A stretch of 64,000 nucleotides of DNA. It comes from Acidobacteriota bacterium. GTDB taxonomy: Bacteria > Acidobacteriota > Vicinamibacteria > Marinacidobacterales > Marinacidobacteraceae. Below, in pieces: positions 4,339-33,976 of the stretch. How positions within the stretch are numbered: the stretch's first letter is position 1; each line of letters begins with the position of its first letter. The notes beneath the pieces are model-generated. The model saw nothing but the letters and a program-made list of their open reading frames with translations, had not been told where the DNA came from and searched no databases. The position numbers were made by a program, and so were the translations under genes. The stretch lies in NCBI GenBank assembly GCA_022822745.1, contig JAJEAO010000077.1:5143-69142 (forward strand), given 5' to 3'.

Positions 4339-5565
4339 ATGAGTTCTCCGCGCCTCCCCGGGTCCACCGGGTTCGACGGAGCTCCGACCGTCACGCTCTA
4401 CGACGAGGATCTGCCGCCCGACAACTCCTACGCGTTCTCGCCCGACGAGCTCGAAGAGGACGAGATGATCCTCAACATGGGGCCCCAGCACCCCTCGACC
4501 CACGGGGTGCTGCGGATCGAGCTCAAGACCGACGGCGAGATCATCAAGGACAGCCGCCCCCACATCGGCTACCTGCACCGCAACTTCGAGAAGCACGCCG
4601 AGAACATCGATTACCAGGGCGTCATCCCGTTCACCGACCGGATGGACTACGTGGGGTCCATGGGCAACAGCCTCGCCTACGCCCTGACGGTCGAGAAGCT
4701 CCTCGGCATCACGGTCGGCGAGCGGGTCGCCTGCATCCGGATCATCACCGCCGAGCTCCAGCGCATCGCCAGCCACCTCCTCGCGATGGGCACCTACGGG
4801 ATGGACATCGGGGCGTTCACCCCGTTCCTCCTCTGCTTCCAGCAGCGCGAGCGGGTTCTCGACCTGTTCGAATGGCTGTGCGGCGCCCGCCTGCTCTACA
4901 ACTACAACTGGGTGGGCGGCGTATCCCACGACCTTCCCGACGGCTGGACCGACCGCTGCGGTCGCTTCCTCGACGAGTTCGTTCCCGTGCTCGACGAAGT
5001 GGACCGGCTCCTCAGCCACAACAAGATCTTCATCCGCCGGACGGGCGACGTCGGGATCATCCCGCCGGAGATGGCGCGCGACTACGCGCTCTCCGGGCCG
5101 AACCTGCGCGGATCGGGAATCTCGTGGGATCTTCGTCGGGACGACCCCTACCTCGGCTACGAGGACTACGACTTCGACGTCATCACCGGGACCGGGGCGC
5201 ACGGGCCCATCGGCTCGTGCTGGGACCGCTACTTCGTCCGGGTCCGGGAGATGTACGAGAGCGTCAGGATCGTCCGCCAGGCGCTCGAGCGGTTGCCGGC
5301 GGAGGGGGATGTTCGCGAGAACGTGCCCCGCTTCATCCGTCCGTCTGCAGGCGAGGCCTACTGTCGCAGCGAGGCGCCCCGCGGCGAGCTCGGCTTCTAC
5401 ATCGTGGCCGACCAGAAGAAGCCGATCCCGTACCGGGTGAAGGGACGCTCTCCCTGCTTCGTGGCCATGGGCCTGTTCCACGAGATCACTCGGGGCGAGA
5501 TGATCGCGGACATCATCGCGATCATCGGCAGCCTCGACATCGTCCTGGGAGAAATCGACCGGTGA
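4339..5565 (+). CDS. nuoD: NADH-quinone oxidoreductase subunit D
   Basis: [29 protein letters not shown] and [12 protein letters not shown] are present. C-terminal DIVLGEIDR. Confidence 0.95.
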
Positions 5566-21837: not shown

Positions 21838-24800
21838 ATGGGCTGGTACTTTCGTGGCTCCCCGTTCGTGGGAGCGCACAAGACCTTGCCGCCCGGCCCT
21901 CCCGACCACGACGCTGCCCGAGCCAGGAGCCGCGATGAGCCGCCGCTCCCGCCCTGCCTCTCGTTCGACCTCGAGGTGGGTGAGAAGGACGGAGGAATCC
22001 ACGCCGTAGGCGCGATCCGCTCGGATACCAGGAAGTCCTTCGAGCACTACGGCGCCCGCGACATGCGGAGGGCCCTCCTGCGACTTGATGAGTTGGCGAA
22101 CGGGGCGGAGTTCGTTCTCGGCCACAACATCATCAAGCACGACCTGCCGCTCCTGAAGAAGGCCGCGCCGAACCTCCGGCTGCTCCGCTTGCCCGCCCTG
22201 GACACGCTGCGGCTCAGTCCCCTCGCGTTCCCCCGGAATCCGTACCACCGCCTGGTCAAGCACTACAAGGACGGAGGCTTCCGAACCACGACCCGGAACA
22301 ACCCGAAGCACGATGCCAGGCTCGCGCTCGATCTGTTCCGCGAGGAGCGGGAGGCGCTGTCCGCGCAGGATTCCCATCGGCTCACCGCCTGGCACTGGCT
22401 GGCCGCGACGGAACCAGGCCAGGGCGCCCGGGGAATGGACCGCTTGTTCCACGATCTCCGCGGGCAGCCTCGGCCGTCGCGGCGCGAAGCGCAGGAAGCG
22501 GTCCGATTCTGCCTCGATCGCGACGGCGCGTGTCAGACCGCCGGGGAGGAGATCGTCGAGCGAGTCGACGGCCAGGGATGGCCGCTCGCCTACGCGCTCG
22601 CGTGGCTCTCGGTCGCTGGGGGGAACTCCGTCATGCCGCCGTGGGTGCGACGCGCGTTCCCGGAGGCGCCGCGTCTGATACGGAGGCTGTGCGACGAGAG
22701 GTGCGCTGACGCCGACTGCTGGTGGTGTCGGGAACGTCTCGATCCCGGCGAGGAACTGACGCGGTGGTTCGGCTTCGAGACCTTTCGCCCCGAACCCGCA
22801 ATGGAGGATGGCCGCCCGATGCAGGGCGCGATCGTCGAAGCCGCCATGAAGCGCCGACACCTTCTCGGGATCCTCCCCACCGGGGCCGGCAAGTCGGTCT
22901 GCTACCAGGTTCCCGCGCTGTCGCGTTACCAGCGGACAGGCGCCCTGACGGTCGTCATCTCGCCGCTGGTTGCACTCATGGCGGATCAGGTGGCTGGCCT
23001 GGAAAAGCGCGGGATCACCGGCTGCGTGACGGTGAACAGCCTCCTGTCCCTGCCGGAGCGCAGGGAAGTGCTGAACCGGATCCGGCTCGGCGACGCTGGA
23101 ATCGTGCTCATCGCTCCCGAGCAACTTCGCTCGCCGACGGTTCGCAGGGCTCTCGCCCAGCGCGAGATCGGCGGCTGGGTGCTCGACGAAGCCCATTGCC
23201 TGTCCTGGTGGGGTCACGACTTCCGCCCGGACTACCTCTACATCGGCCGCTTCATCCGCGAGCGGGCAAAGGAGGACGGGAGTGCGATTCCCCCGGTGAT
23301 GTGTCTCACGGCGACCGCGAAGCCGGACGTGAGGGACGACATCGCCCGCCACTTTCGCAAGAAAGTCGGGATCGAACTGCTCGTTTTCGACGGCGGCGCC
23401 GAGCGCAGGAACCTCAAGTTCGATGTTCGTGAAACGACCCGGTCGCAGAAGAATCGGCATGTCCTCGAATCCCTCGAGACACACCTCGATCCCGACACCC
23501 GAGATGGAGCCATCGTTTACTGCTCCACCAGGCGGAGGAGCGAGAGCGTCGCTGAATTCCTGAGAGAAGGCGGCTTCAAAGCGGCTCACTACCACGCGGG
23601 TATGAAGCCCGAGACCCGGAAGGAAGTCCAGGAGGACTTCATCCGCGGCGATCTCCGCGCGATCGCAGCGACGAACGCGTTCGGGATGGGGATCGACAAG
23701 CCGGATGTGCGCCTCGTGCTCCACGCCGATGCTCCGGGATCGCTCGAGAACTACTTGCAGGAGGCCGGGCGGGCCGGCCGTGACGGCGACCCGGCGCGAT
23801 GTGTCCTGCTCTACTCGCCGGACGACATCGAGCGGCAGTTCGGGCTGTCGGCGCGCTCGCGGCTCGCTCACTACGAGATCGTCGCAATCCTGAAGGCGCT
23901 GCGCTGCTTGGATCGTCGGAATCGGAGGCACGCGTCCAATGGAGATGTCGTGGTCACGTCGGGCGAGATCCTGCACGCCGACGCCGAAAGTGGATTCGAG
24001 CGGGACAGCGCCACCGACGACACCCGCACTCGAATGGCCGTCGCCTGGCTGGAAGAGGCTCATTTCCTCCAGCGCAACGAGAACGCCATCCGGGTCTTCC
24101 CGTCATCGCTCCGGGTTCTATCGCTTGAGAGGGCGGAAGCGAAGCTGAAGGCTGCCAGGGGACTTTCCGAATCGGACCGCGAGCGGCTGCTGTGTGTCAC
24201 CGGGGCCATTCTCGGAGCCGGTGCTGACGAAGGCATCACGACCGACGAATTGATGGGAAAGTGCGATCTGTCACCCGAACAGGTGACGCACACCCTCTCG
24301 AGACTCCACGGATTCGGCATCACGACGGCGAAGACGGCGATCACGGCCTACGTTCATCGCGCTGTCCCTGATTCGTCGGCTCGGCGACTCGAGGAGGCCC
24401 GGAACCTCGAAACCGCCCTGATCGCACATCTTCGCGAGGCAGCCCCGGACCTGACCGTGGGCGAGAGCTCTCGGCTGGATCTTCGGATCGCCGCGCAGCG
24501 ACTCCACGACGATGGAGCAACAGGGGCGCATCCAGCGCGTCTCTGGCGGATCGTCCGAAGCATTCGCTACGACGGACGCGGCGAGAAGCCGGATGCCGTG
24601 GGCAGTTGGGCGGCGCGGAAACTGGGTCCCTGGGCTGCGCGGATCACGCTGCGAAGGGACTGGGGAGACCTGAAGGCTCTCGCCGCGAATCGGCAGAGCA
24701 TCGCCCGGAGTCTGTTGACGCATCTGCTGGAACGGTTGCCGGAGGGCGCGCGGGGCAAGGATCTCCTCGCCGAGACGACACTGGAGGCGCTGGGTGGAGT

Positions 24801-27108
24801 GGTTCACAGCGACCTGTTCGCGAGTTTCGCCATGAACGCTGAGGAACTCACGCATCGAGCCATCCTCTGGCTCCACGAGCAGGACGTGATTCGCCTGCAC
24901 AAGGGGCTCGCGATCTTCCGCCCGGCGATGAGGATCCGGATGCAGTCGCGGAGGCGCCGGCAGGGCTACACGAAACGTGATTTCGAGCCCCTTCGATTCC
25001 ACTATCAGCGCCAGATCCTCCAGGTCCACGTGATGAAGGAGTTCGCCGAACGGGGCTCGAAGGCCGTGTCAGAGGCGCTCGCGCTGGCCACGGACTACTT
25101 CTCGATGGAAGAGAAGAAGTTCCTCGACCGCTGGATGCCGGGGCGGGAACAGGAGGTGCGCATTCAGACGACGCCGGAGTCGAAGCGGCGCATCGTCGAA
25201 GAGCTGCGGAACCCCGAGCAGGAAGCGATCGTTGCCGATGACCGGGACGACACCAACGTGCTCGTTCTGGCCGGCCCGGGCTCGGGGAAGACCCGCGTCC
25301 TGGTCCACCGCATCGCCTACCTGGTTCGGGTCCGGCGGGAGGATCCCGGAGGCATCGTGGCGTTGAGCTACAACCGCCATGCCGCGGCTCAGATCCGTCG
25401 CCGGCTTCTCGATCTCGTCGGTGACGATGCCCGGCGGGTGACAGTGCTCACGTGCCACGCGCTTGCGATGCGTCTCCTCGGGAGGACGTTCGCGGACCGC
25501 AAGGAACGGCTCGACGACGGCGCGTTTGCCAACCTGTTGCGCGAGGCGACGGCTCTCCTCGAAGGCAAGGATCTACCCCCGGAGGATCAGACGGAGGCGG
25601 CGGCGCGCCGGGAGCGACTTCTCGCGGGATTTCGATGGATCTTCGTGGACGAGTACCAGGACATCGGACCCGGGGAGTACGACTTGATCTCGGCGCTCGC
25701 CGGGCACACGCGCCAGGACGGCGACGAAAGGCTCAACTTGTTCGCGGTTGGCGATGACGACCAGAACATCTACTCGTTCAAGGGCGCCTCGGTGCGCTTC
25801 ATCCGTCGCTTCAACGAGGACTACGGGCCGAACGTTGCCTGCCTGACGCAGAACTACCGGTCCACGCGGCAGATCATCGAGGCTTCCAACGTTCTGATCT
25901 CGGCGGCGAAGGCGCGGATGAAGGGGTCGAAGCACGAGATCCGGATCAACACGGCTCGGCGGAGCGAGCCCCCGGGAGGCCGCTGGACGACTCTCGATCC
26001 GATGGCTCGCGGGAGGGGGCAGATCCTCCCGGCCGGGCGCGATTCTGCAGAGCAGGCCGTCGCGGTCGTGGAGGAACTGCGGCGGCTCGCCTCGCTCGAT
26101 CCGGACTGGGACTGGTCGCGCTGCGCCGTGGTGTCGCGGAAGAGGGAGCTTCTCGATCCTGTCCGCGCCGTCTGTGAGCCCGCTGGCATCCCGGTCCAGA
26201 TGGGCGACGAGAAGATGCCGCCTTTCTGGCGGTTACGGGAAACGCGGGAGTTTGTCGGCTGGCTCCGATCCGGAGAGTCGCGGGTCGTCGAGCCCGACGA
26301 GCTCAGCCAGTGGCTGGACGAAAGACCCTCCAATCCTTGGTGGGATCTCTTGCGGCAGGCTGTCGAGCAACACCACGAAGAGGCCGGGGCTGCCTCGCAC
26401 CCGGTAGGGCCCTTCGTCGAATGGCTGGCGGAGTGGGGGCACGAGGTGCGACGCCGCCAGCGGGGCCTCCTCCTGACGACGGCGCACCGCGCCAAAGGGC
26501 TGGAGTTCGACCACGTGGCCGTGCTCGATGGAGACTGGGACGGGGCATGGGACAACGAGGATGCCGACGCCCCACGACGGCTCTACTACGTTGCCATGAC
26601 CCGCGCCCGGGAGACGCTCCTCCTGGCCCGAATGGAGTCCCCGACCGCGCTGCAGGAGGATCTGCTGAAGCTGCCCAGCGTCCTGCGCCGCGACGCGAGG
26701 CCGAGGAAACCTGCCCCCTCCGCAGCTCACCTCCGCACGGTCCGACTCGGGATGAAGGATGTGGACCTGGGTTTCGCCGGGTGCTTCCGTGCTGGTCACC
26801 CGATCCACCGCCGAATCCGCGCCCTGAACCCGGGCGACGTACTGACCATCCGCGTCAACTTCCCGGGCTGGGATCTGCTCAACGGCTCCAGTCACCTGGT
26901 AGGCCGCCTCGCCATGAGGTTCCGACCCCCGAACGGCATGCGCTGCCGATCCGTCACGGTTGCGGCGATCGTCGCCTGGAGCCGCGCCGACACGAAGCCC
27001 AAGTACCTCGAGCGCTGCGACTGCGACGAATGGGAAGTCGTCCTCCCGGAACTCGTCTTCGAACCCGATGGCACTCCCGTGCTTCGCGTCCCGCATGGAG
27101 CCTCCTGA
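21838..27108 (+). CDS. Giant fusion protein: DEDD-type 3'-5' exonuclease + RecQ-family helicase + UvrD/PcrA-family helicase
   Basis: N-terminus: SFDLEVGE, GHNIIKHDLPLL and LDTLRLS (DnaQ-like exo motifs). RecQ core: ILPTGAGKSVCYQVPAL, VISPLVALMADQV, VLDEAHCLSWWGHDFRPDY, CLTATA, ATNAFGMGIDKPDVRLVLH and QEAGRAGRDG. UvrD core: VLAGPGSGKTRVLVHRIAYL, IFVDEYQDIGPGEY, FAVGDDDQNIYSFKGA, LTQNYRSTRQII, LLTTAHRAKGLEFDHV and YYVAMTRARETLLL. The start is uncertain (ATG 21838, GTG 21868 or TTG 21886). Confidence 0.85.
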   Translation: MGWYFRGSPFVGAHKTLPPGPPDHDAARARSRDEPPLPPCLSFDLEVGEKDGGIHAVGAIRSDTRKSFEHYGARDMRRALLRLDELANGAEFVLGHNIIKHDLPLLKKAAPNLRLLRLPALDTLRLSPLAFPRNPYHRLVKHYKDGGFRTTTRNNPKHDARLALDLFREEREALSAQDSHRLTAWHWLAATEPGQGARGMDRLFHDLRGQPRPSRREAQEAVRFCLDRDGACQTAGEEIVERVDGQGWPLAYALAWLSVAGGNSVMPPWVRRAFPEAPRLIRRLCDERCADADCWWCRERLDPGEELTRWFGFETFRPEPAMEDGRPMQGAIVEAAMKRRHLLGILPTGAGKSVCYQVPALSRYQRTGALTVVISPLVALMADQVAGLEKRGITGCVTVNSLLSLPERREVLNRIRLGDAGIVLIAPEQLRSPTVRRALAQREIGGWVLDEAHCLSWWGHDFRPDYLYIGRFIRERAKEDGSAIPPVMCLTATAKPDVRDDIARHFRKKVGIELLVFDGGAERRNLKFDVRETTRSQKNRHVLESLETHLDPDTRDGAIVYCSTRRRSESVAEFLREGGFKAAHYHAGMKPETRKEVQEDFIRGDLRAIAATNAFGMGIDKPDVRLVLHADAPGSLENYLQEAGRAGRDGDPARCVLLYSPDDIERQFGLSARSRLAHYEIVAILKALRCLDRRNRRHASNGDVVVTSGEILHADAESGFERDSATDDTRTRMAVAWLEEAHFLQRNENAIRVFPSSLRVLSLERAEAKLKAARGLSESDRERLLCVTGAILGAGADEGITTDELMGKCDLSPEQVTHTLSRLHGFGITTAKTAITAYVHRAVPDSSARRLEEARNLETALIAHLREAAPDLTVGESSRLDLRIAAQRLHDDGATGAHPARLWRIVRSIRYDGRGEKPDAVGSWAARKLGPWAARITLRRDWGDLKALAANRQSIARSLLTHLLERLPEGARGKDLLAETTLEALGGVVHSDLFASFAMNAEELTHRAILWLHEQDVIRLHKGLAIFRPAMRIRMQSRRRRQGYTKRDFEPLRFHYQRQILQVHVMKEFAERGSKAVSEALALATDYFSMEEKKFLDRWMPGREQEVRIQTTPESKRRIVEELRNPEQEAIVADDRDDTNVLVLAGPGSGKTRVLVHRIAYLVRVRREDPGGIVALSYNRHAAAQIRRRLLDLVGDDARRVTVLTCHALAMRLLGRTFADRKERLDDGAFANLLREATALLEGKDLPPEDQTEAAARRERLLAGFRWIFVDEYQDIGPGEYDLISALAGHTRQDGDERLNLFAVGDDDQNIYSFKGASVRFIRRFNEDYGPNVACLTQNYRSTRQIIEASNVLISAAKARMKGSKHEIRINTARRSEPPGGRWTTLDPMARGRGQILPAGRDSAEQAVAVVEELRRLASLDPDWDWSRCAVVSRKRELLDPVRAVCEPAGIPVQMGDEKMPPFWRLRETREFVGWLRSGESRVVEPDELSQWLDERPSNPWWDLLRQAVEQHHEEAGAASHPVGPFVEWLAEWGHEVRRRQRGLLLTTAHRAKGLEFDHVAVLDGDWDGAWDNEDADAPRRLYYVAMTRARETLLLARMESPTALQEDLLKLPSVLRRDARPRKPAPSAAHLRTVRLGMKDVDLGFAGCFRAGHPIHRRIRALNPGDVLTIRVNFPGWDLLNGSSHLVGRLAMRFRPPNGMRCRSVTVAAIVAWSRADTKPKYLERCDCDEWEVVLPELVFEPDGTPVLRVPHGAS

Positions 27109-27229: not shown

Positions 27230-27496
27230 GTGCCGACCATGCGTGGCGTGACCATGGCGCTGTCAATCAGACTGTTTTCCGGGCCTTCTGACCCCCTGCG
27301 TCCCCTGCCTCCGTTTGTCGAGCAGCAGTTTGTCGAGCAGCAGCGTCTCGTCGCCGAGGTCTATGAACTCATGGCTCTCTGTGACCGGCTGGAGGCTGGT
27401 CTTGATGCCACGGACGGCACCCGGAATCGCCTTCTGCATGACACGCTGACGCCATCCGCGTACGAAGCTGCTACTGTCGGGGCGGTTGGGGCATGA
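27230..27496 (+). pseudogene. hsdS: Remnant of a type I restriction-modification specificity subunit (C-terminal conserved helix only)
   Basis: PLPPFVEQQ..RLVAEVYELMALCDRLEAGL matches the conserved HsdS C-terminal coiled-coil region (PPLxEQxxIVxxvdxLmalcDxLEa). There is no target-recognition domain upstream. It contains a perfect 15-bp tandem duplication. Confidence 0.6.
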
Positions 27497-28641
27497 TCCG
27501 CGTCTCGGTGCGCCCCGAGATGCTGCGCTGGGCTTGTGAGCGCGCGGGCCACGATGTGGCCCACTTCTCTGAGCGGGTGCCGCAACTGTCGGCCTGGATC
27601 CGGCGAGAGCGAAGGCCGACGCTGAAACAACTGGAGAAGATGGCGAGAGTCACCCACACTCCGCTCGGCTACCTGTTCCTCCGGGAGCCTCCCGACGAAC
27701 GCCTCCCCGTGGCTGACTACCGCACGGTGTCGGGCACCGCTGCAGCCAAGCCGGGTCCCGACCTGCTGGACACGCTGTACGCGATGCTGCGCCGCCAGGC
27801 CTGGTTGCGGGAGTCGCGCGTGGAGCACGAGGCGGAGCCACGGGCGTTCGTGGCGAGCGCCCGTCTCGCCGACGAGCCCGATGCGGCGGGGCGCGAGATG
27901 CGGCGGTCACTCGGCCTGGACGACGGATGGGCGGCCCGAGTCCGAACTTGGCAGGACGCTGTGGGTGAGTTGCGCCGTTCGATCGAGAACCTGGGCGTGA
28001 TGGCGGTGATCAACGGCGTGGTGGGGAACAACACCCATCGTCGACTGAGAGTGGAGGAGTTCCGCGGCTTCGCGCTCCCGGATCCCTACGCGCCGCTGAT
28101 TTTCGTGAACGGCGCCGATGCGAAATCGGCGCAGATGTTCACGCTTGCCCACGAACTGGCGCACATCTGGCTCGGCAGGGATGGGGTCTCCGGCTTCGAT
28201 GCCCTGCTTCCACACGGTACCGAGGTCGAGCACTGGTGCAATCGCGCGGCGGCTGAACTGCTCGCGCCCGCCCGGGAAGTCACGGCCCGGTGGATGGAGG
28301 TGAGACGGTCGCCGAGTCCGTTCGATTCGCTGGCGCGGTCGTTCAAGGTGAGCCCGGTCGTGGCCGCCCGTCGCGCTCTCGACCTCTCGCTCATCGGCCG
28401 CGGCGCCTTCTTCGCCTTCTACGAGCGGTACATGGAGCGGGAGGGCGAGAGCGGGACCAAGCCGACCGGGGGCGATTTCTTCAACAACCAGAACACGCGT
28501 GTTGGCGAGTTGTTCGCGACCCATGTTCTGCGCGCTGCGTTGGAGGGCCGAATCGGCTTCAAGGATGCCTATGACCTGACCGGGCTCCGCGGAGGAACGT
28601 TCCAGAAGTACGCCAGACGCTTGGGTTGGGATCTTCCATGA
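27493..28641 (+). CDS. ImmA/IrrE-family metallopeptidase with an N-terminal HTH-like region
   Basis: The ATG overlaps the hsdS-stub stop (ATGA). FTLAHELAHIWLG (HExxH) and WCNRAAAELLAP are present. The N-terminus resembles an XRE-like domain. Confidence 0.8.
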   Translation: MIRVSVRPEMLRWACERAGHDVAHFSERVPQLSAWIRRERRPTLKQLEKMARVTHTPLGYLFLREPPDERLPVADYRTVSGTAAAKPGPDLLDTLYAMLRRQAWLRESRVEHEAEPRAFVASARLADEPDAAGREMRRSLGLDDGWAARVRTWQDAVGELRRSIENLGVMAVINGVVGNNTHRRLRVEEFRGFALPDPYAPLIFVNGADAKSAQMFTLAHELAHIWLGRDGVSGFDALLPHGTEVEHWCNRAAAELLAPAREVTARWMEVRRSPSPFDSLARSFKVSPVVAARRALDLSLIGRGAFFAFYERYMEREGESGTKPTGGDFFNNQNTRVGELFATHVLRAALEGRIGFKDAYDLTGLRGGTFQKYARRLGWDLP

Positions 28642-29162
28642 GCGCGGATCGGGTCTTTCTCGTGGATTCGGATGTATTCATCACGGCAAAGAACCTGTAC
28701 TACGCGTTCGACATCTGCCCCGGGTTCTGGAAGAGCCTGCTCCATCATCACCAAGCCGGCCGCGTCTACAGCATAGACCGTGTGCGCGGCGAGCTCCTCG
28801 CGGGCAGCAAGACCGAGGATCTGGTGCGCTGGGTGAGGAGCGAGGTTCCGCAGGAGTTTTTCCTCCCCGTGGACACTGCTTCCGTGGCGAGCTCCTACAC
28901 GGACATCATGATGTGGGTCCAGCGCCACCCTCGGTACTTCGACTACGCGAAGGCAAAGTTCGCGACGGGCGCGGACGGCTGGCTGGTCGCGTACGCACGG
29001 GTCCACGGCGCAGTCGTCGTGACCAACGAGCAGAGCGCCCCGGAGTCCAGGAGAGAGGTGAAGCTTCCCGATCTATGCGCTCGTTTCCGAGTCCGACACG
29101 AGAACACGTTCGCCATGCTTCGCGCGCTGAAAGTGCAGTTCGATCAGACCGGAGACCACTGA
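28638..29162 (+). CDS. DUF4411-family (PIN-like) protein, the usual partner of ImmA/IrrE
   Basis: The ATG at 28638 overlaps the upstream stop (ATGA). VFLVDSDVFITAKNLYYAFDICPGFWKSLL, VYSIDRVRGEL, DGWLVAYARVHGAVVVTNE. Confidence 0.75.
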   Translation: MSADRVFLVDSDVFITAKNLYYAFDICPGFWKSLLHHHQAGRVYSIDRVRGELLAGSKTEDLVRWVRSEVPQEFFLPVDTASVASSYTDIMMWVQRHPRYFDYAKAKFATGADGWLVAYARVHGAVVVTNEQSAPESRREVKLPDLCARFRVRHENTFAMLRALKVQFDQTGDH

Positions 29163-29680
29163 TCGTCCCCGCGGAACCCGTGGGCGGTCGCATCCCGATC
29201 CGTCTGTCTCCGCAGCGCTCGGAGCATGCACTGACCTGGTTCAGACCCGGCCGCGGCACCTTCGAGCCCGCTGATGTGCTCTAGCCCGCGACGGTGCCGG
29301 CATCCCGCCGGTGGCAGTCATGCGTCCGGCGACGCCCGGAGCGTGCGGTCAAGCCTCAGGTTGTCGCGATCGGTTCAGGTCCGCCGTACCCACTGAGAGG
29401 TCGAAGATGAGGCTGGACACGGCGCGCCAACTAGGATAGGACATGGGATGAGATGGGAGCCGTGATCACGATGGAGGCTGTTGCCGGAGCTTGGCCGGGG
29501 AGGCAAGCGTGATTCCGGGCCGCGCCAGTTCCGTTGGCGTGAGGTCGCTCGTCGCCAATGTGCTCCTCGGCAAGGCCAAGGAGGAGGGCGACGCCTGCTG
29601 TGGAGACGACGCCGCCGCCGAGCCATCAACTCCGATGCGGCGCGGGGACTGGTTTCTCGGGGTCTTCCGAGAGCGCAGCG

Positions 29681-31501
29681 TCAAGAGGTTGCGGTACCTT
29701 GCAATGCTCCGTCCCTTGCCTTCACACCGGAGTATGAGATACCAAGGCTAGACGCGGATCCCGCACCTTGATCTGACCCGCGATCCGATATCCCGCCTAG
29801 AGCCTTGCTGAGTAGGTCTAGTTCCGATTTCAACCGGGAACAGAGCTCGTCGAAATGACCCCGGAAACCGTCATCCCTCCGCTGAATCTGCTGGAGAAAC
29901 TCATGCGCTCGTCTCCCCTTTGTGTGTGACATCACTGTCCTCGCACGTTGAAGCTCTCGGAGCCCACTGAGTTCAGAGCCCTGGGCCTCCGGTATAGTTT
30001 CCTGTACAAGTCGCCTCAGCAGCATCAGGCTCCCTTCTGCGGGCTTCGGCTTCATGCCACATTCGGTCGCCGTGTGACGCAGCCACTTCAGATCGAACCC
30101 CTCAATCAAGACGCTGGCTAGGGCACGACACTTCTCGCTCCATTCCTCGCGACTCTGCGTGAACATGGGCCGGATATCGGCGAGAGCTGATTCGTCTCGG
30201 CATATCCACCATGGAGTGCTCATCTTCTTCCATTCATGGAGCTTCCGCGTCACTGCGGACACGGCTGCATCTTGAGACTTCAAGTCCGTCCACTTGCCGG
30301 CGAAATCCATGGCGATGATGTCAGGTGAGAGCTGGGCCTTAGGGGCTTCGTTATAGCCCCTCCAGTGCATCTGTTCGCTATAGGGGAGTTGCCGCAAGTA
30401 GCGAAGGTAGGCATGGACCTGACCCGCCTCGTTGCGACCGATGGCTTGGAGTTCCCAGATGTCTTTGCATGTGATGGTTCGGCCGTTGATGACATACTTT
30501 CCGGAATCACTCTCATACTTGCGCAGAACCTCTGGTCGGAAGAAGGCCGGTGACATTTCATATGGCAAGCGGGGCCTCTTTTCTGCGTAGTTCGTAGTAG
30601 CGCTAGGATCCAGAGAAACTCTGACAACTTGTTCATGGCGCCAGTCGTGGGTCAAGAAGGACAGCGGTGGCCCTGACTCTCGAGGAAGGAGGCCGGAGTC
30701 CAGCGACGCAATGATGGCGGCTCGTGATTGGGAGAGGGGGAGAATCTGAACACCGCGCACATAGCCAGCATAGCCCGGATCCTCGAACCGACGGAATGTC
30801 AGAGTATCGTCTTTCTGTATGGGAGGTGGATCATGTCGTGGCCACATGGCAAACGTGTTCGGATCATACAGGTTGAAGTCAAACAGGCGTACTAGGGTCA
30901 GGTTGGCTGCGGCGAGGTACTGCTCAAGAGGATAGCGATAGAACGACACCACGGAGGGAGTTGACGATTCTCGATTGAGCGTTGCAGAGACGATGTCGAC
31001 GAGGTCGCCGTTTTCGTCCCTGAGCAGGAACCGACCACCGGGAGCGACGCAGGGAATCTCGGAGACGTGAGCGTACTCCTGGTGAACCTCGATCTGCAGT
31101 TCTCCTGATCCCGTGTTGGATATGGTGGTCCTGCGGTAAAGGAGAGAGTGTGCGCGAGACAGAGCGGCGGGGCGCCAGGGGCCGTCAGCGACGTCAACAT
31201 GAGAGTCCTGTGGAGCGCCGGAATAGACGTAGCCGATTCGCGTGGATGGAAGGCCGCCGTCCCAATCGAGCAGATCCGTGTCCCGGACTGATTGGAGGTC
31301 GAGGGTCGGCACGGCCACGGTGTGAATGAAGATGTGGGGTGACGCCACGTCGATGAGGAGTTGATCCTCGCGGGCATTCTGTCGAAGGAGACGAAGGTGA
31401 TCGACACCCTTGATCCAATGGGCGTGCTTTCCGGCACTGCTCGGAGGGGTATGAACGGCTTGGACTCGTCGGATGAGGTTCTTGTGTTCAAAGCGCGGCA
31501 T
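29681..31501 (-). CDS. Hypothetical protein, 606 aa, no family recognised
   Basis: Long ORF with varied, non-repetitive amino-acid composition in a visibly AT-richer segment. ATG at 31501 (MPRFEHKNLI). The ORF-track start at 31531 is also possible. The C-terminal helical region carries R-x4-H (RTVMSH). Confidence 0.65.
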   Translation of the reverse strand: MPRFEHKNLIRRVQAVHTPPSSAGKHAHWIKGVDHLRLLRQNAREDQLLIDVASPHIFIHTVAVPTLDLQSVRDTDLLDWDGGLPSTRIGYVYSGAPQDSHVDVADGPWRPAALSRAHSLLYRRTTISNTGSGELQIEVHQEYAHVSEIPCVAPGGRFLLRDENGDLVDIVSATLNRESSTPSVVSFYRYPLEQYLAAANLTLVRLFDFNLYDPNTFAMWPRHDPPPIQKDDTLTFRRFEDPGYAGYVRGVQILPLSQSRAAIIASLDSGLLPRESGPPLSFLTHDWRHEQVVRVSLDPSATTNYAEKRPRLPYEMSPAFFRPEVLRKYESDSGKYVINGRTITCKDIWELQAIGRNEAGQVHAYLRYLRQLPYSEQMHWRGYNEAPKAQLSPDIIAMDFAGKWTDLKSQDAAVSAVTRKLHEWKKMSTPWWICRDESALADIRPMFTQSREEWSEKCRALASVLIEGFDLKWLRHTATECGMKPKPAEGSLMLLRRLVQETIPEAQGSELSGLRELQRARTVMSHTKGRRAHEFLQQIQRRDDGFRGHFDELCSRLKSELDLLSKALGGISDRGSDQGAGSASSLGISYSGVKARDGALQGTATS

Positions 31502-31601
31502 GGGGAGCCTCCTGAGTGGCCACGGTGGCATAGAGCATCATATGTACTGGGAACGAAACTATGATACCATGGACTGCGCTCAGGGCAAGCGAAGGGGGCC
31601 G

Positions 31602-32732
31602 ATGGTGGAGATTGCGGCGAATCTGGCGCGGCTGCGCCTGGATCGCCGACTGACCCAGGCCCGCCTGGCTGAGCGGGCTGGACTGTCCCGGGTCGCCGTC
31701 GGCAAGATCGAGCGCGGCGCCGTCGTCCCGCGCGCCGGGACGCTGGTCGCGCTGGCGCGGGCTCTGGACGTGCCGGTTCGGGATCTGATCGCCCGCGTCC
31801 GGCCGCTGAGGAGCGTCCGGTTCCGAGCGCGTTCTCGACTGTACGGGCGGGAGCAGATTCTCGCCGAGGTCTCACGATGGCTGGATAACTATGGTGGGCT
31901 GGAGGACGCGCTCGGGAGGCGCCTCGAGTTCAGCCTCCGGGATCTCGTGACTCCGGGTTCTGTTGTCTCGCCTCCCGATGTCGCCCGCAGGGCCCGGGAG
32001 CGAGCGGCCCTGGATCGGGTCGCGCCGGTCGGGAACATCTGTCGGTTCCTGGAGGAGGCGGGAGTCAAGGTGCTCCTGCTCGACAAGAAGCGGGACTCCT
32101 TCTTCGGGTTGAGCGTCGGGCCGGAGGATCGGGGACCGGCAGTCGTAGTGAACGTCTGGGATCGGATCTCGGTCGAGCGCTGGATCTTCACCGCGGCCCA
32201 CGAGATGGGGCACCTGCTCCTGCATCCGATGGAGTTCGATCCCGAGGAGACCCGGCCCCCGAAGGCGACCGAGAAGGAGGCCGACAGTTTTGCCAGCCAT
32301 TTCCTGATGCCGGAACCCGCCTTCAAGCGGGAGTGGAACGCGACTCGTGGCACCTCGTTGCTCTGGCGCGTCCTCACGGTGAAGCGAATTTTCCGCGTGA
32401 GCTACCGGACGGTTCTGTTCCGTCTATACGAGACAGAGCGCGCCGGCGCCGGAGTCTGGGCCGCCTTCCAGACACAGCATCGGCGGTACCTCGGGCGAAC
32501 CCTGAAGAAGGCGGACGAGCCGAACCCACTCGGGAGGAGTGAGTTCTCCTGGAGTGCCCCTCGGGCGGGCGAACCGGCCGCCTTGTTGGAGCATGATTTC
32601 CGTGGATTCCGCCTCGTGCGGCTCGTCCGCCAAGCTGTCGAGCAGGGCCGGATTTCGCTCGGGCGCGCGGCCGAGATTCTGGGTCTCCCGTTGGAGGAAA
32701 TGCGGGTGCGCGCACGTGAGTGGGCCGAGTAG
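31602..32732 (+). CDS. XRE-family HTH fused to an ImmA/IrrE (M78) metallopeptidase domain
   Basis: ATG at 31602 preceded by GAAGGGGG. RLTQARLAERAGLSRVAVGKIERG (HTH_3), FTAAHEMGHLLLHP (HExxH) and EKEADSFASHFLMP. Confidence 0.85.
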   Translation: MVEIAANLARLRLDRRLTQARLAERAGLSRVAVGKIERGAVVPRAGTLVALARALDVPVRDLIARVRPLRSVRFRARSRLYGREQILAEVSRWLDNYGGLEDALGRRLEFSLRDLVTPGSVVSPPDVARRARERAALDRVAPVGNICRFLEEAGVKVLLLDKKRDSFFGLSVGPEDRGPAVVVNVWDRISVERWIFTAAHEMGHLLLHPMEFDPEETRPPKATEKEADSFASHFLMPEPAFKREWNATRGTSLLWRVLTVKRIFRVSYRTVLFRLYETERAGAGVWAAFQTQHRRYLGRTLKKADEPNPLGRSEFSWSAPRAGEPAALLEHDFRGFRLVRLVRQAVEQGRISLGRAAEILGLPLEEMRVRAREWAE

Positions 32733-32791
32733 ATCCTGCGCCGCAAGCACGACTCTGACGGACTGAATTCGGGGCTTGACGGGGCCGTCCC

Positions 32792-33976
32792 TCAGTCGGT
32801 CTTCGCCCAGATCGTGAGGCGGAGCTCCTCGCCGAAGAGCTCGTACGTGGGGCGGCGACCCGAGTGCGCTTCGCTCGCTTCGAGAATTCGGCGTACGCCT
32901 TCGCCGCGGGATTCGAGGAAGACGCGTGCCGTCCGGTGGCTGTGGATGCGCGAGAGGAAGTTCACGAGAAGCTGATTGCGGGTGAAGACACGGTAGGGCA
33001 TGTCGTCGAGCGTCATCGTGTTGGGTAGCTTGCCCGGGCTGTAGAGTTCGAGCCGGTCGCGGAAGAGGAACAGGCGAATCTTGGAGCCGTAGATCGAATA
33101 GTCGCGGTGCGCTACGGCGTTCACCACGGCTTCGGCCACGACATCGGGATCGAACGCCTTTTCGCCGGCACGGGACCGGATAAAGGCGACGGCGGCATCG
33201 ATCTGTTCGGGCACCGGGCCGCGAACTCGCTGTTCGTGGAGCAGGTCGTCCGAGGAGAGTCGCGTTCCCTCGTAGGAAGCCGCCTCGATCCATGCGCTTC
33301 GCAGGTGTTCCGTCGGCCGCTGTCCGAAGGTCAGGAGACCCGCCACCGTGGGGCGGTCCACGTGCTCCTCGTCACGAAGGATGACCCGAGCGTTGCGAAG
33401 CAGATCGAGCCAGGGGATGGTCGGTGAACGTCCGAAGAACGACTCCAGTCGGTTCCAGTCGAGGTCGTTGACGCTGGCTGCGAACACGGGCTGCTCGTCG
33501 AAGACGTAGCCTCGGCCGCGATCCTGGAAGAGTCGCGCCAGTTCGGGTGGGTCGAGGTCCCGCTTCGTCGAGCCCACGCGGATCGTGTAGCGGCCTCCGG
33601 CCGTGCGATGGACGAAGTTGCCCCGCGGGATCTCCGCCAGCAGGACGTGCCGCTCCTGTCCGGTCTCATCCGGCAGGAGTTCCCGACGCAGCGTCGGGCG
33701 AATGGGCGGGACGCTGTTGTTCGACGCGATGTTCACGAGCCAGGTCTCGACGAGGCCGACCCGTTCGGCCGGAATGCCCACGACCTCGCCTGAGTCGGCG
33801 ATGCCGAGCAGGAGGACTCCTCCGACGCCGTTGGCGAAGGCCACCATTTCCGCCGCCAGATCGTCACGGTTGGGTGAGATCACGCTTCGCTTGCCGAAGC
33901 GAATCTCCTTGAATTCCGTGCGGCTGTCCTCCCCAGCGCGGCACTGCCGGAGGATCGGTTCGCGAGCGTTCATCAT
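32792..33976 (-). CDS. AlbA_2 (Schlafen-like) DNA-binding domain + HATPase_c_4-like ATP-binding protein
   Basis: GEDSRTEFKE, LAAEMVAFANGVGGVLLLGI.DSGEVVGI, then AVVNAVAHRDYS and LELYSPGKLPN. Confidence 0.75.
   Translation of the reverse strand: MMNAREPILRQCRAGEDSRTEFKEIRFGKRSVISPNRDDLAAEMVAFANGVGGVLLLGIADSGEVVGIPAERVGLVETWLVNIASNNSVPPIRPTLRRELLPDETGQERHVLLAEIPRGNFVHRTAGGRYTIRVGSTKRDLDPPELARLFQDRGRGYVFDEQPVFAASVNDLDWNRLESFFGRSPTIPWLDLLRNARVILRDEEHVDRPTVAGLLTFGQRPTEHLRSAWIEAASYEGTRLSSDDLLHEQRVRGPVPEQIDAAVAFIRSRAGEKAFDPDVVAEAVVNAVAHRDYSIYGSKIRLFLFRDRLELYSPGKLPNTMTLDDMPYRVFTRNQLLVNFLSRIHSHRTARVFLESRGEGVRRILEASEAHSGRRPTYELFGEELRLTIWAKTD

Follow-up and report, generated by a model that had tools for sequence, protein, structure and literature searches.

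A 64,000-nt stretch of an Acidobacteriota genome (contig JAJEAO010000077.1 of assembly GCA_022822745.1, hereafter the window) carries an island that extends from an H+-translocating pyrophosphatase (H+-PPase) gene to a TonB-dependent receptor gene (21.8-34.0 kb), and in which two genes face away from each other. The first encodes a 606-aa protein, named T606 here, and the second a fusion of an XRE-type helix-turn-helix (HTH) with an M78 peptidase, named ImmA2. An earlier reading of the bare sequence, referred to below as the original prediction, had proposed this pair as a candidate immunity module, with about 100 bp between the starts and with the larger gene as the most AT-rich segment of the window. 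Both observations hold: the start codons (ATG 31501 and ATG 31602) are 100 bp apart, and the T606 gene, with a GC content of 0.575 and a GC content at third codon positions (GC3) of 0.636, is the lowest-GC 1.8-kb stretch of the window. For comparison, GC3 is 0.81 in ImmA2, approximately 0.81 in the other island genes and 0.93 in the neighbouring H+-PPase gene, and the GC content of the whole window is 0.694. The coordinates of the features discussed are collected in Table 1.

Table 1. Features of the T606-ImmA2 locus and of the surrounding island (positions in the window).
Feature	Position	Strand	Basis
T606, 606 aa, unnamed superfamily, candidate defence effector	29681..31501	-	Open reading frame; start by Shine-Dalgarno box and homologues
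T606 N-terminal mixed alpha/beta region, residues 1-279, proposed sensor	30665..31501	-	hhalign, model
T606 middle beta/alpha domain, residues 280-395, most conserved block	30317..30664	-	Alignments, translation, secondary structure
T606 C-terminal all-helical domain, residues 396-580, putative HEPN-like effector	29762..30316	-	AlphaFold2 domain model
Codons R521-T-V-M-S-H526, invariant Arg/His pair (Rx4-5H)	29924..29941	-	Translation, alignments
Shine-Dalgarno AGGAGG for T606, 6 nt ahead of ATG 31501	31508..31513	-	Sequence reading
ImmA2, 376-aa HTH_3 and M78 (HExxH) repressor-peptidase, CapH-CapP-fusion-like	31602..32732	+	Pfam, PADLOC, PDB, family alignment
Operator-like inverted repeat ATCATA-N17-TATGAT (family motif ATCAT-N19-ATGAT)	31537..31565		Inverted-repeat and motif search
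Predicted sigma-70-like promoter for T606: TTGCCC, 16 nt, TG-extended TATCAT	31561..31588	-	Promoter scan
Replaced cassette, no nucleotide homology to L177	29360..31600		blastn; L177 gene content
57-59 bp gap where relatives hold the regulator's PIN partner	32733..32791		blastn; PIN gene absent
AlbA_2/Schlafen and HATPase_c_4 gene, conserved hotspot flank	32792..33976	-	Pfam; syntenic in L096, L177, L180
ImmA1 (second HTH/M78, 382 aa) and DUF4411 PIN-like gene (178 aa), 16-nt overlap	27493..29162	+	Pfam, gene calls
1756-aa RecQ/DpdF-like and UvrD/GajB-like helicase fusion, island edge by H+-PPase	21838..27108	+	Pfam, PADLOC

Counted from its first ATG, the open reading frame of T606 (29681..31531, minus strand) would yield 616 aa, and ATG 31501 is the better supported start, being preceded at 6 nt by AGGAGG and agreeing with the N-termini of 30 homologues. 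For ImmA2, automatic gene calling places the start at ATG 31542, which would reduce the intergenic gap to 40 bp; ATG 31602 is backed by 35 close homologues of 376-381 aa that begin at the same residue. Translation places the 68-aa central block of T606 at 30341-30544 and the peptide LRELQRARTVMSH, in which the original prediction had recognized a possible RNase motif, at 29924-29962, both on the minus strand.

T606 is a real gene and not a chance open reading frame, because 346 homologues were retrieved at E<=1e-3 by one search of a 5.8-billion-protein collection, and because a relative is encoded in 279 of 185,579 GTDB species genomes. These homologues, mostly of about 570 aa, originate from Acidobacteriota, Chloroflexota, Spirochaetota, Pseudomonadota, Planctomycetota, Nitrospirota and Truepera, and those that bear a name are all called hypothetical. 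More distant relatives, with 20-28% identity, are found by tblastn on plasmids of Pseudomonas, Rhodococcus and Streptomyces, and a T606-type gene occurs on three IMG/VR viral contigs. A P. syringae protein, matched by T606 with an E-value of 2e-14 (tblastn), surfaced as a query a second, sister subfamily of about 530 aa (2207 hits), with members in E. coli, Burkholderia pseudomallei, Xanthomonas citri, Acinetobacter and cyanobacteria. Both subfamilies are joined over their full length by hhalign (A1 vs A6: 99.9% probability, E 6e-35, 521 columns), so that T606 belongs to a superfamily of solitary genes encoding proteins of approximately 530-575 aa, and the profile of its C-terminal domain matches 771 clusters at 50% identity.

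The original prediction could assign the 606-aa protein to no family, and neither can the annotation libraries: T606 has no match in Pfam 2025, NCBIfam 2026, PHROGs or PADLOC 2.0 (5027 models). Searching Pfam at E<=10 with 30 T606 members and 10 members of the sister subfamily gave nothing consistent, PDB sequence searches with full-length and C-terminal domain profiles returned no match, and in a representative-library search with the C-terminal domain profile all 150 matches listed belong to the same family, with no link to a known domain. Foldseek comparison of the full-length model with PDB and BFVD gave no hit below E 0.01 and no meaningful template modelling score, so that the profile and fold searches suggested at the outset lead to no characterised family or fold. 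A literature search by accession of family members found no papers. A PADLOC model covering the superfamily is unlikely, because T606, which is related to the sister subfamily, matches none of the 5027 models.

Three regions can be distinguished in T606 (Table 1). The full-length AlphaFold2 (AF2) model has a predicted local distance difference test score (pLDDT) of 76 and a predicted template modelling score (pTM) of 0.51. The N-terminal region is conserved along its full length with the E. coli-type subfamily (hhalign). The middle domain contains the central block that had been taken to suggest a real domain, and it is the most conserved part of the protein, with the motifs DWRN, ATTNY, SPAFFRPEVL, NEAGQVHAY and EQxHW..NExPK. 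When modelled alone, the C-terminal domain is predicted with eight helices (pLDDT 88.9, pTM 0.82). Beyond it, residues 577-606 (29681-29770) form a 30-residue Gly/Ser-rich tail with a pLDDT below 50 that occurs in no homologue, and that may be a read-through created at cassette insertion.

The C-terminal domain carries the R-x4-H spacing that the original prediction had flagged as compatible with HEPN-type RNases, and the conservation of this pair is stronger than the spacing by itself could suggest. R521 and H526 are invariant in a 30-member alignment (with a spacing of x4 in the clade of the window and x5 in others) and likewise in three distant plasmid-borne relatives that are 20-28% identical; the E. 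coli-type subfamily has the pair, again invariant, as R478-x5-H484. Because no further basic or His residue is invariant in the alignment with the distant relatives, R521/H526 represents the best candidate catalytic site of T606. Pairs of this kind, invariant and set in a helical domain, are typical of RNase toxins. In HEPN domains, the Rx4-6H motif spans the end of core helix 3 and the beginning of the loop that leads to helix 4 (Anantharaman et al. 2013, PMC3710099). The position predicted in both AF2 models fits this placement: R521 is in the final turn of one helix (512-525), the loop opens with H526, and the next helix (530-542) follows. T606 further resembles HEPN proteins in the polar residue that follows the Arg, in an upstream Glu, E453, which is invariant within each of the two subfamily alignments, and in the conflict and defence contexts of its relatives. 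What speaks for a HEPN-type enzyme is thus the motif, together with its conservation and predicted location, and the predicted helical fold.

Several results weigh against such an assignment. The residue after the Arg is Ser or Thr in the T606 family (Asn in one relative), whereas Asn, Asp or His is typical of HEPN proteins. No HEPN profile was matched in Pfam (E<=10, with the 30 and 10 members mentioned above), in NCBIfam and PADLOC or in PDB sequence searches, and Foldseek comparison of the C-terminal domain model with PDB gave a best E of 0.3 with no HEPN protein in the top 50, a search that is weak on small helical bundles. T606 thus differs from HEPN families in lacking both a profile and a structural match to them. 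The HEPN-type motif originally suggested therefore stands as regards the residues and their predicted location at a helix end, and does not stand as regards profile and fold; that the superfamily consists of HEPN-type RNases is a possibility that we consider less likely than not.

The characterised protein that T606 most resembles in organisation is ApeA, a solitary protein in which N-terminal and middle domains precede a split, enlarged HEPN domain, and which cleaves tRNA anticodons upon activation by a ligand and causes abortive infection (Gao 2020; Juozapaitis et al. 2026, bioRxiv 10.64898/2026.01.26.701840). Both are solitary and of similar size (about 530-575 aa in T606 relatives; the HEPN region of Ec2ApeA extends to residue 583), both have N-terminal and middle non-catalytic domains ahead of an enlarged C-terminal helical domain (predicted in T606), both carry their Arg/His pair some 50-80 residues from the C-terminus (R521 in Ec1ApeA, R502 in Ec2ApeA, R521 in T606), and both occur in defence contexts. 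In contrast to ApeA, which is mainly alpha-helical, T606 is rich in beta strands in its N-terminal half. Membership of the ApeA family was rejected: hhalign of A1 and A6 with the first 400 aa of the Ec1-4, Pa1 and Thr1 ApeA proteins gave 0.1-0.2% probability, and T606 has no match in the Pfam copy searched, for which the presence of HEPN_Apea and ApeA_NTD1 was not confirmed, or in PADLOC, a library expected to include ApeA models. One distant relative bears the UniRef label 'ApeA N-terminal domain-containing', probably machine-generated and not reproduced with Pfam. By analogy, ApeA would be the nearest functional analogue of T606, which itself appears to lie outside the ApeA family.

As for the divergent neighbour, the fusion of an XRE-type HTH with an M78 peptidase is borne out by Pfam (HTH_3 1.8e-12, Peptidase_M78 2.1e-14). 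In PADLOC, ImmA2 matches 14 RmrA models (best 2.2e-32), capP (3e-15) and capH (2e-7); profile comparison with PDB gives weak but specific matches to CapP (7t5t, 1e-4) and CapH (7t5u, 3e-4), a sub-threshold NCBIfam hit points to the spr1629 repressor/antitoxin family, and the sole match of the C-terminal 120 aa is a weak one to UPF0175. The family comprises 1921 hits at E<=1e-20, the best 120 of which share 60-93% identity; its alignment has a mean column identity of 77% and an invariant H200-E201-x-x-H204. A metagenome scan with the ImmA2 alignment found 81 regulator loci, where a single-protein query found none (loci of relatives are denoted below by L-numbers). In at least 35 of the 64 evaluable loci a co-directional downstream gene of approximately 170 aa abuts or overlaps the stop codon of the regulator, and a PIN domain was identified in six of ten such partners tested. 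A divergent upstream neighbour lies within 400 nt in 29 of the 64. At least 11 loci (L096, L097-099, L106, L111, L125, L126, L131, L140 and L175) have in this position an operon of the antiphage signalling system based on cyclic oligonucleotides (CBASS), including operons with SMODS cGAS/DncV-like nucleotidyltransferases (CD-NTases), with Cap2-type E2/E1/JAB proteins, with patatin, or with an AAA+ ATPase accompanied by a small second gene; other divergent neighbours include a KAP NTPase and a Y2 transposase. None of the 81 loci has a T606 homologue.

The capH and capP genes are described upstream of an immune operon, on the opposite strand and with a shared promoter, fusions of the two exist, and cleavage is triggered by single-stranded DNA (ssDNA) or DNA damage (Lau et al. 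2022, bioRxiv 10.1101/2022.04.27.489752; Calloji et al. 2026, PMC13228613). ImmA2 shares with them the XRE HTH and the HExxH M78 peptidase, the location upstream of, and on the strand opposite to, a candidate immune gene across a shared promoter region with a palindrome near the promoter, and, through its orthologues, the same position beside type I, II and III-like CBASS operons. The type of regulator named in the original prediction is therefore well founded, since orthologues of ImmA2 face CBASS operons across a shared promoter as CapH/CapP do. Unlike the two-protein form, ImmA2 is a single polypeptide, in a distinct and very conserved clade (60-93% identity) that usually has a downstream PIN gene, of which no mention was found in Lau et al. 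2022 or Calloji et al. 2026, and its cargo in the window is T606 and not CBASS. Judged on sequence and position, ImmA2 would qualify as a CapH-CapP fusion.

Two side observations concern these regulator loci. PIN genes also follow regulators that face CBASS, giving a three-part layout of CBASS, divergent HTH-peptidase and PIN. At four loci (L097 5754-6980, L099 5684-6793, L106 5768-6910, L111 1-630) a protein of about 400 aa with no Pfam match occupies the position of the CD-NTase upstream of the Cap2-type E2/E1/JAB gene, and may be either a CD-NTase of divergent sequence or the product of a new gene that opens a type II CBASS-like operon.

How did T606 come to lie opposite this regulator? Comparison with related genomes suggests an exchange of cargo at a hotspot. 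The AlbA_2/HATPase_c_4 gene, convergent to ImmA2 in the window, lies beside the regulator in all four syntenic genomes, and together with the TonB receptor (plus cytochrome and FG-GAP genes in L180) it forms a flank common to L096, L177 and L180. Opposite the regulator, these relatives carry different genes: a patatin-CBASS operon, 68 bp away and at the same chromosomal site, in L096 (77% identity); a CD-NTase operon with three small ORFs (open reading frames) in L177 (95% nucleotide identity); and a 232-aa unknown gene with insertion sequence (IS) elements in L180 (76% identity). The blastn homology blocks between the window and L177 (28898-29359, 31601-32735 and 32792-33993) show that homology stops at 29359 and restarts exactly at the regulator start codon, at 31601. 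Because homology breaks across 29360-31600, T606 lies in a replaced cassette. Its low GC3 would mark it as the newest arrival at the locus, and its adjacency to ImmA2 looks like a recent cassette replacement at a hotspot with cargo turnover. The PIN partner of the regulator has also gone: the gene is present at L096 7115-7642 and L177 4768-5295, L177 bases 4787-5309 are missing from the window, and tblastn detected no remnant of it in the window. No RNA elements were found in 27.0-34.5 kb of the window, and the window contains no tRNA genes as integration sites.

The region between the two start codons contains elements that may bear on the control of both genes. The inverted repeat ATCAT-N19-ATGAT (at most one mismatch) was recovered from 17 of 54 non-redundant upstream regions of the regulator family, where shuffled sequences yielded 2.0 on average and 6 at most, and 19 is the dominant arm spacing. 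The copy in the window is perfect and lies 65 nt before ATG 31602; perfect copies are also present in L096 and L180, at 72 and 70 nt before the start codons. The motif is absent from all 80 upstream regions of T606 homologues. A promoter scan of 31300-31800 returned one site, on the T606 strand, where 0.0 were expected from shuffles, and the right arm of the repeat shares bases with its predicted -10 box TATCAT (31566-31561). A repressor bound to the repeat would plausibly shut off both divergent promoters.

The surroundings of T606 homologues were surveyed at 80 GTDB loci, each from a different genome record, and in some extra contexts. The most widely shared neighbour family occurs at no more than seven loci, and among 118 immediate neighbours no Pfam family appears more than three times, the commonest being integrases, DDE transposases, N6/N4 methyltransferases, type I S subunits and AlbA_2. 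A conserved partner was found neither by phmmer with all island proteins, nor by all-against-all clustering of neighbours, nor by Pfam and PADLOC annotation of the 118 neighbours, nor by jackhmmer from recurrent neighbours of about 330 aa and from DUF4238. Toxin-antitoxin and restriction-modification genes, remnants of CBASS and transposases are found in these contexts: a Y1 transposase, an integrase fragment, DUF2442/DUF4160 and HigB/HTH around the Truepera homologue; HigB/HTH in a second; Gp49/HTH, DUF2442/DUF4160, ParE and HicB in a third; AlbA_2/HATPase_c_4, AAA_14/DUF4143 and nSTAND in a fourth; PIN/PhdYeFM, AAA_14/DUF4143, and SNF2 with a giant Eco57I-like protein in a fifth. On a P. aeruginosa megaplasmid a relative lies beside SAVED, nucleotidyltransferase and ThiF genes, in R. 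fascians near Phd/RelE and RES, and in P. syringae it is the first cargo gene after the GmtY-GmtZ-GmtX trio, in a type of island (GMT) for which abundant defence cargo has been described. The distant T606 relatives on Streptomyces and Rhodococcus plasmids each adjoin a DUF4238 gene (L181 5891-6901; L182 5810-6823), a pairing absent from the 80 GTDB loci; a DUF4238 protein conferred T7 resistance (Rousset et al. 2022).

In E. coli, the superfamily member (WP_052318713.1, 543 aa; loci L183/L190, gene at L190 2501-4132) is found in P2-like prophages, where it lies antisense with baseplate gene V on one side and morphogenesis gene S on the other, and this subfamily gene occurs in 11 of 5,426 complete genomes, with one copy in each. 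The V-S gap differs from the old/tin and fun(Z) hotspots discussed in papers on P2 hotspots. An IS or transposon identity of T606 was ruled out by the absence of terminal inverted repeats and the single copy per genome. Taken together, these contexts form the pattern expected of a solitary defence-type cargo gene. The linkage that the original prediction had anticipated is thus found in part, the homologues lying in toxin-antitoxin and defence islands and in prophages, and not with an XRE-ImmA gene as neighbour (0 of 80 loci).

The clade closest to T606 (46-53% identity) belongs to sponge-associated Acidobacteria, in which two conserved small genes (176 aa and 97-142 aa) follow T606, the first overlapping its stop codon (L001 9745-10865, L086 9722-10677, L092 8480-9435); neither gene occurs in the window or at the other 78 loci. 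An AlbA_2/HATPase_c_4-type gene also lies near T606 homologues on contigs of sponge-associated Acidobacteria (L086 4441-6069; L092 18162-18483).

The explanation that we infer from these observations, and whose probability as a whole we set a little under that of its being wrong, is that T606 is a single-protein abortive infection (Abi)-type effector, recently slotted opposite ImmA2 and probably damage-inducible. The family would move as cargo, be it of islands with defence and toxin-antitoxin genes, of megaplasmids, of GMT islands or of P2-like prophages. An infection cue would be sensed by the N-terminal and middle domains, neither of known fold, after which the C-terminal helical domain would act via R521/H526 as a HEPN-like, metal-independent RNase. 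At the locus of the window, T606 would recently have entered the cargo slot opposite ImmA2, displacing the CBASS operon found in sister genomes, and would probably be kept repressed by ImmA2 via the palindrome centred in the 100-bp shared region. By analogy with CapH/CapP, DNA damage or an ssDNA signal would then probably lead the peptidase domain to inactivate the repressor, and T606 to be induced. What makes repression followed by induction probable in this scheme is the location of the regulator palindrome, central to the promoter region of both genes and overlapping the -10 box predicted for T606. Regarding its parts, an immune effector role of the superfamily is mildly favoured, and T606 is a good candidate for a new antiviral gene on the grounds of its family's contexts, its invariant RNase-like Arg/His pair and its slot opposite the regulator; control of T606 by ImmA2 at this particular locus is plausible, with the balance tipped slightly to the other side.

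Does the adjacency then reflect regulation, or an accident of cassette exchange? A two-gene immunity module, as originally proposed, is not conserved: HTH/M78 genes lie within 8 kb of T606 homologues at none of the 80 GTDB loci and in none of the extra contexts, T606 homologues are found at none of the 81 regulator loci, and the relative with 95% identity has a CD-NTase operon instead. Further points argue in the same direction, against the explanation proposed above. Divergent neighbours within 400 nt are limited to about 45% of regulator loci, the usual partner being the downstream PIN gene; the GC3 values of T606 (0.64) and ImmA2 (0.81) speak against co-evolution and would allow the adjacency to be accidental; towards the regulator, the window offers a poor -35 element; and the defence association of T606 homologues is qualitative. 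ImmA2 could accordingly be the orphan regulator or antitoxin of an ImmA-PIN module that has lost its PIN gene, next to an independent T606 gene expressed from its own promoter and uncontrolled by ImmA2. The PIN gene that abuts the regulator in at least 35 of 64 evaluable homologues and is lost from the window, the mutual absence of the two families from each other's loci, their unequal GC3 and the 35 of 64 regulator loci that have no divergent neighbour would all fit such an accident. However, the sole room for a T606 promoter is the 100-bp region centred on the regulator palindrome, which the predicted -10 box overlaps, and orthologues with the same operator face CBASS across 68-230 bp, like the characterised CapH/CapP systems; an accidental adjacency appears rather unlikely.

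A different doubt concerns T606 itself, which might be no immune effector at all and instead an accessory or selfish-element protein (involved in anti-defence, DNA or RNA binding, or element maintenance) that hitch-hikes in variable regions. No family, fold or functional link was found for it, transposases and integrases are among its commonest neighbours, and its defence association is a qualitative one. Against this speak the single copy per E. coli genome, the distribution of the 80 GTDB loci over 80 genome records and the absence of terminal repeats, as well as its occupation of sites recognised for cargo (behind the GMT trio, in the V-S gap of P2 in antisense orientation, in place of CBASS) and the invariant Arg/His pair in a helical domain, and we regard such a role as improbable. 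Still less probable, to the point of being a marginal alternative, is a RosmerTA-like toxin-antitoxin pair in which the HTH-peptidase would neutralise T606 at the protein level. The best PADLOC hits of ImmA2 are indeed RmrA models (2e-32), and the sub-threshold NCBIfam hit points to a repressor/antitoxin family; but T606 finds no match among RmrT models, the two genes diverge instead of being co-transcribed, base composition indicates separate origins, and T606 would need no antitoxin, because its homologues live without such a partner in more than 80 loci. RosmerTA identity proper is ruled out, since no RmrT-like partner is present and the gene downstream of ImmA2 is the convergent AlbA_2 gene. 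All things considered, what the original prediction had observed is confirmed, and its interpretation is partly supported.

Elsewhere in the island, the 1756-aa fusion at the H+-PPase edge combines a weak N-terminal exonuclease-like region, a RecQ/DpdF-like DEAD helicase (PADLOC DpdF 2e-117) and a UvrD/GajB-like helicase. The second HTH/M78 gene, ImmA1, still has its overlapping PIN-like gene, so that one island holds both an intact ImmA-PIN-type pair and the orphan ImmA2.

Should T606 prove to be an immune effector, those known would be joined by a sizeable family that is named in no annotation resource and whose representatives from P2-like prophages of E. coli and from Pseudomonas plasmids can readily be tested. 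In the broadest form of this view, which is put forward tentatively and which we would sooner doubt than assert, the superfamily would represent widespread and unrecognised single-protein anti-phage effectors with thousands of members, ranging from Acidobacteria to P2 prophages of E. coli, combining sensor domains of a new fold with a cryptic HEPN-like RNase domain that escapes current profile and fold libraries, and the locus would show CapH-CapP-fusion regulators as a portable damage-inducible platform that exchanges CBASS and effector cargo. The locus is in itself a natural example of cargo exchange, with CBASS, T606 or IS elements found opposite the same conserved repressor-peptidase, and bears on the reuse of damage-responsive regulators between immune systems. 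It also suggests a search strategy, in which the genes opposite ImmA2-family regulators are taken as candidate defence genes.

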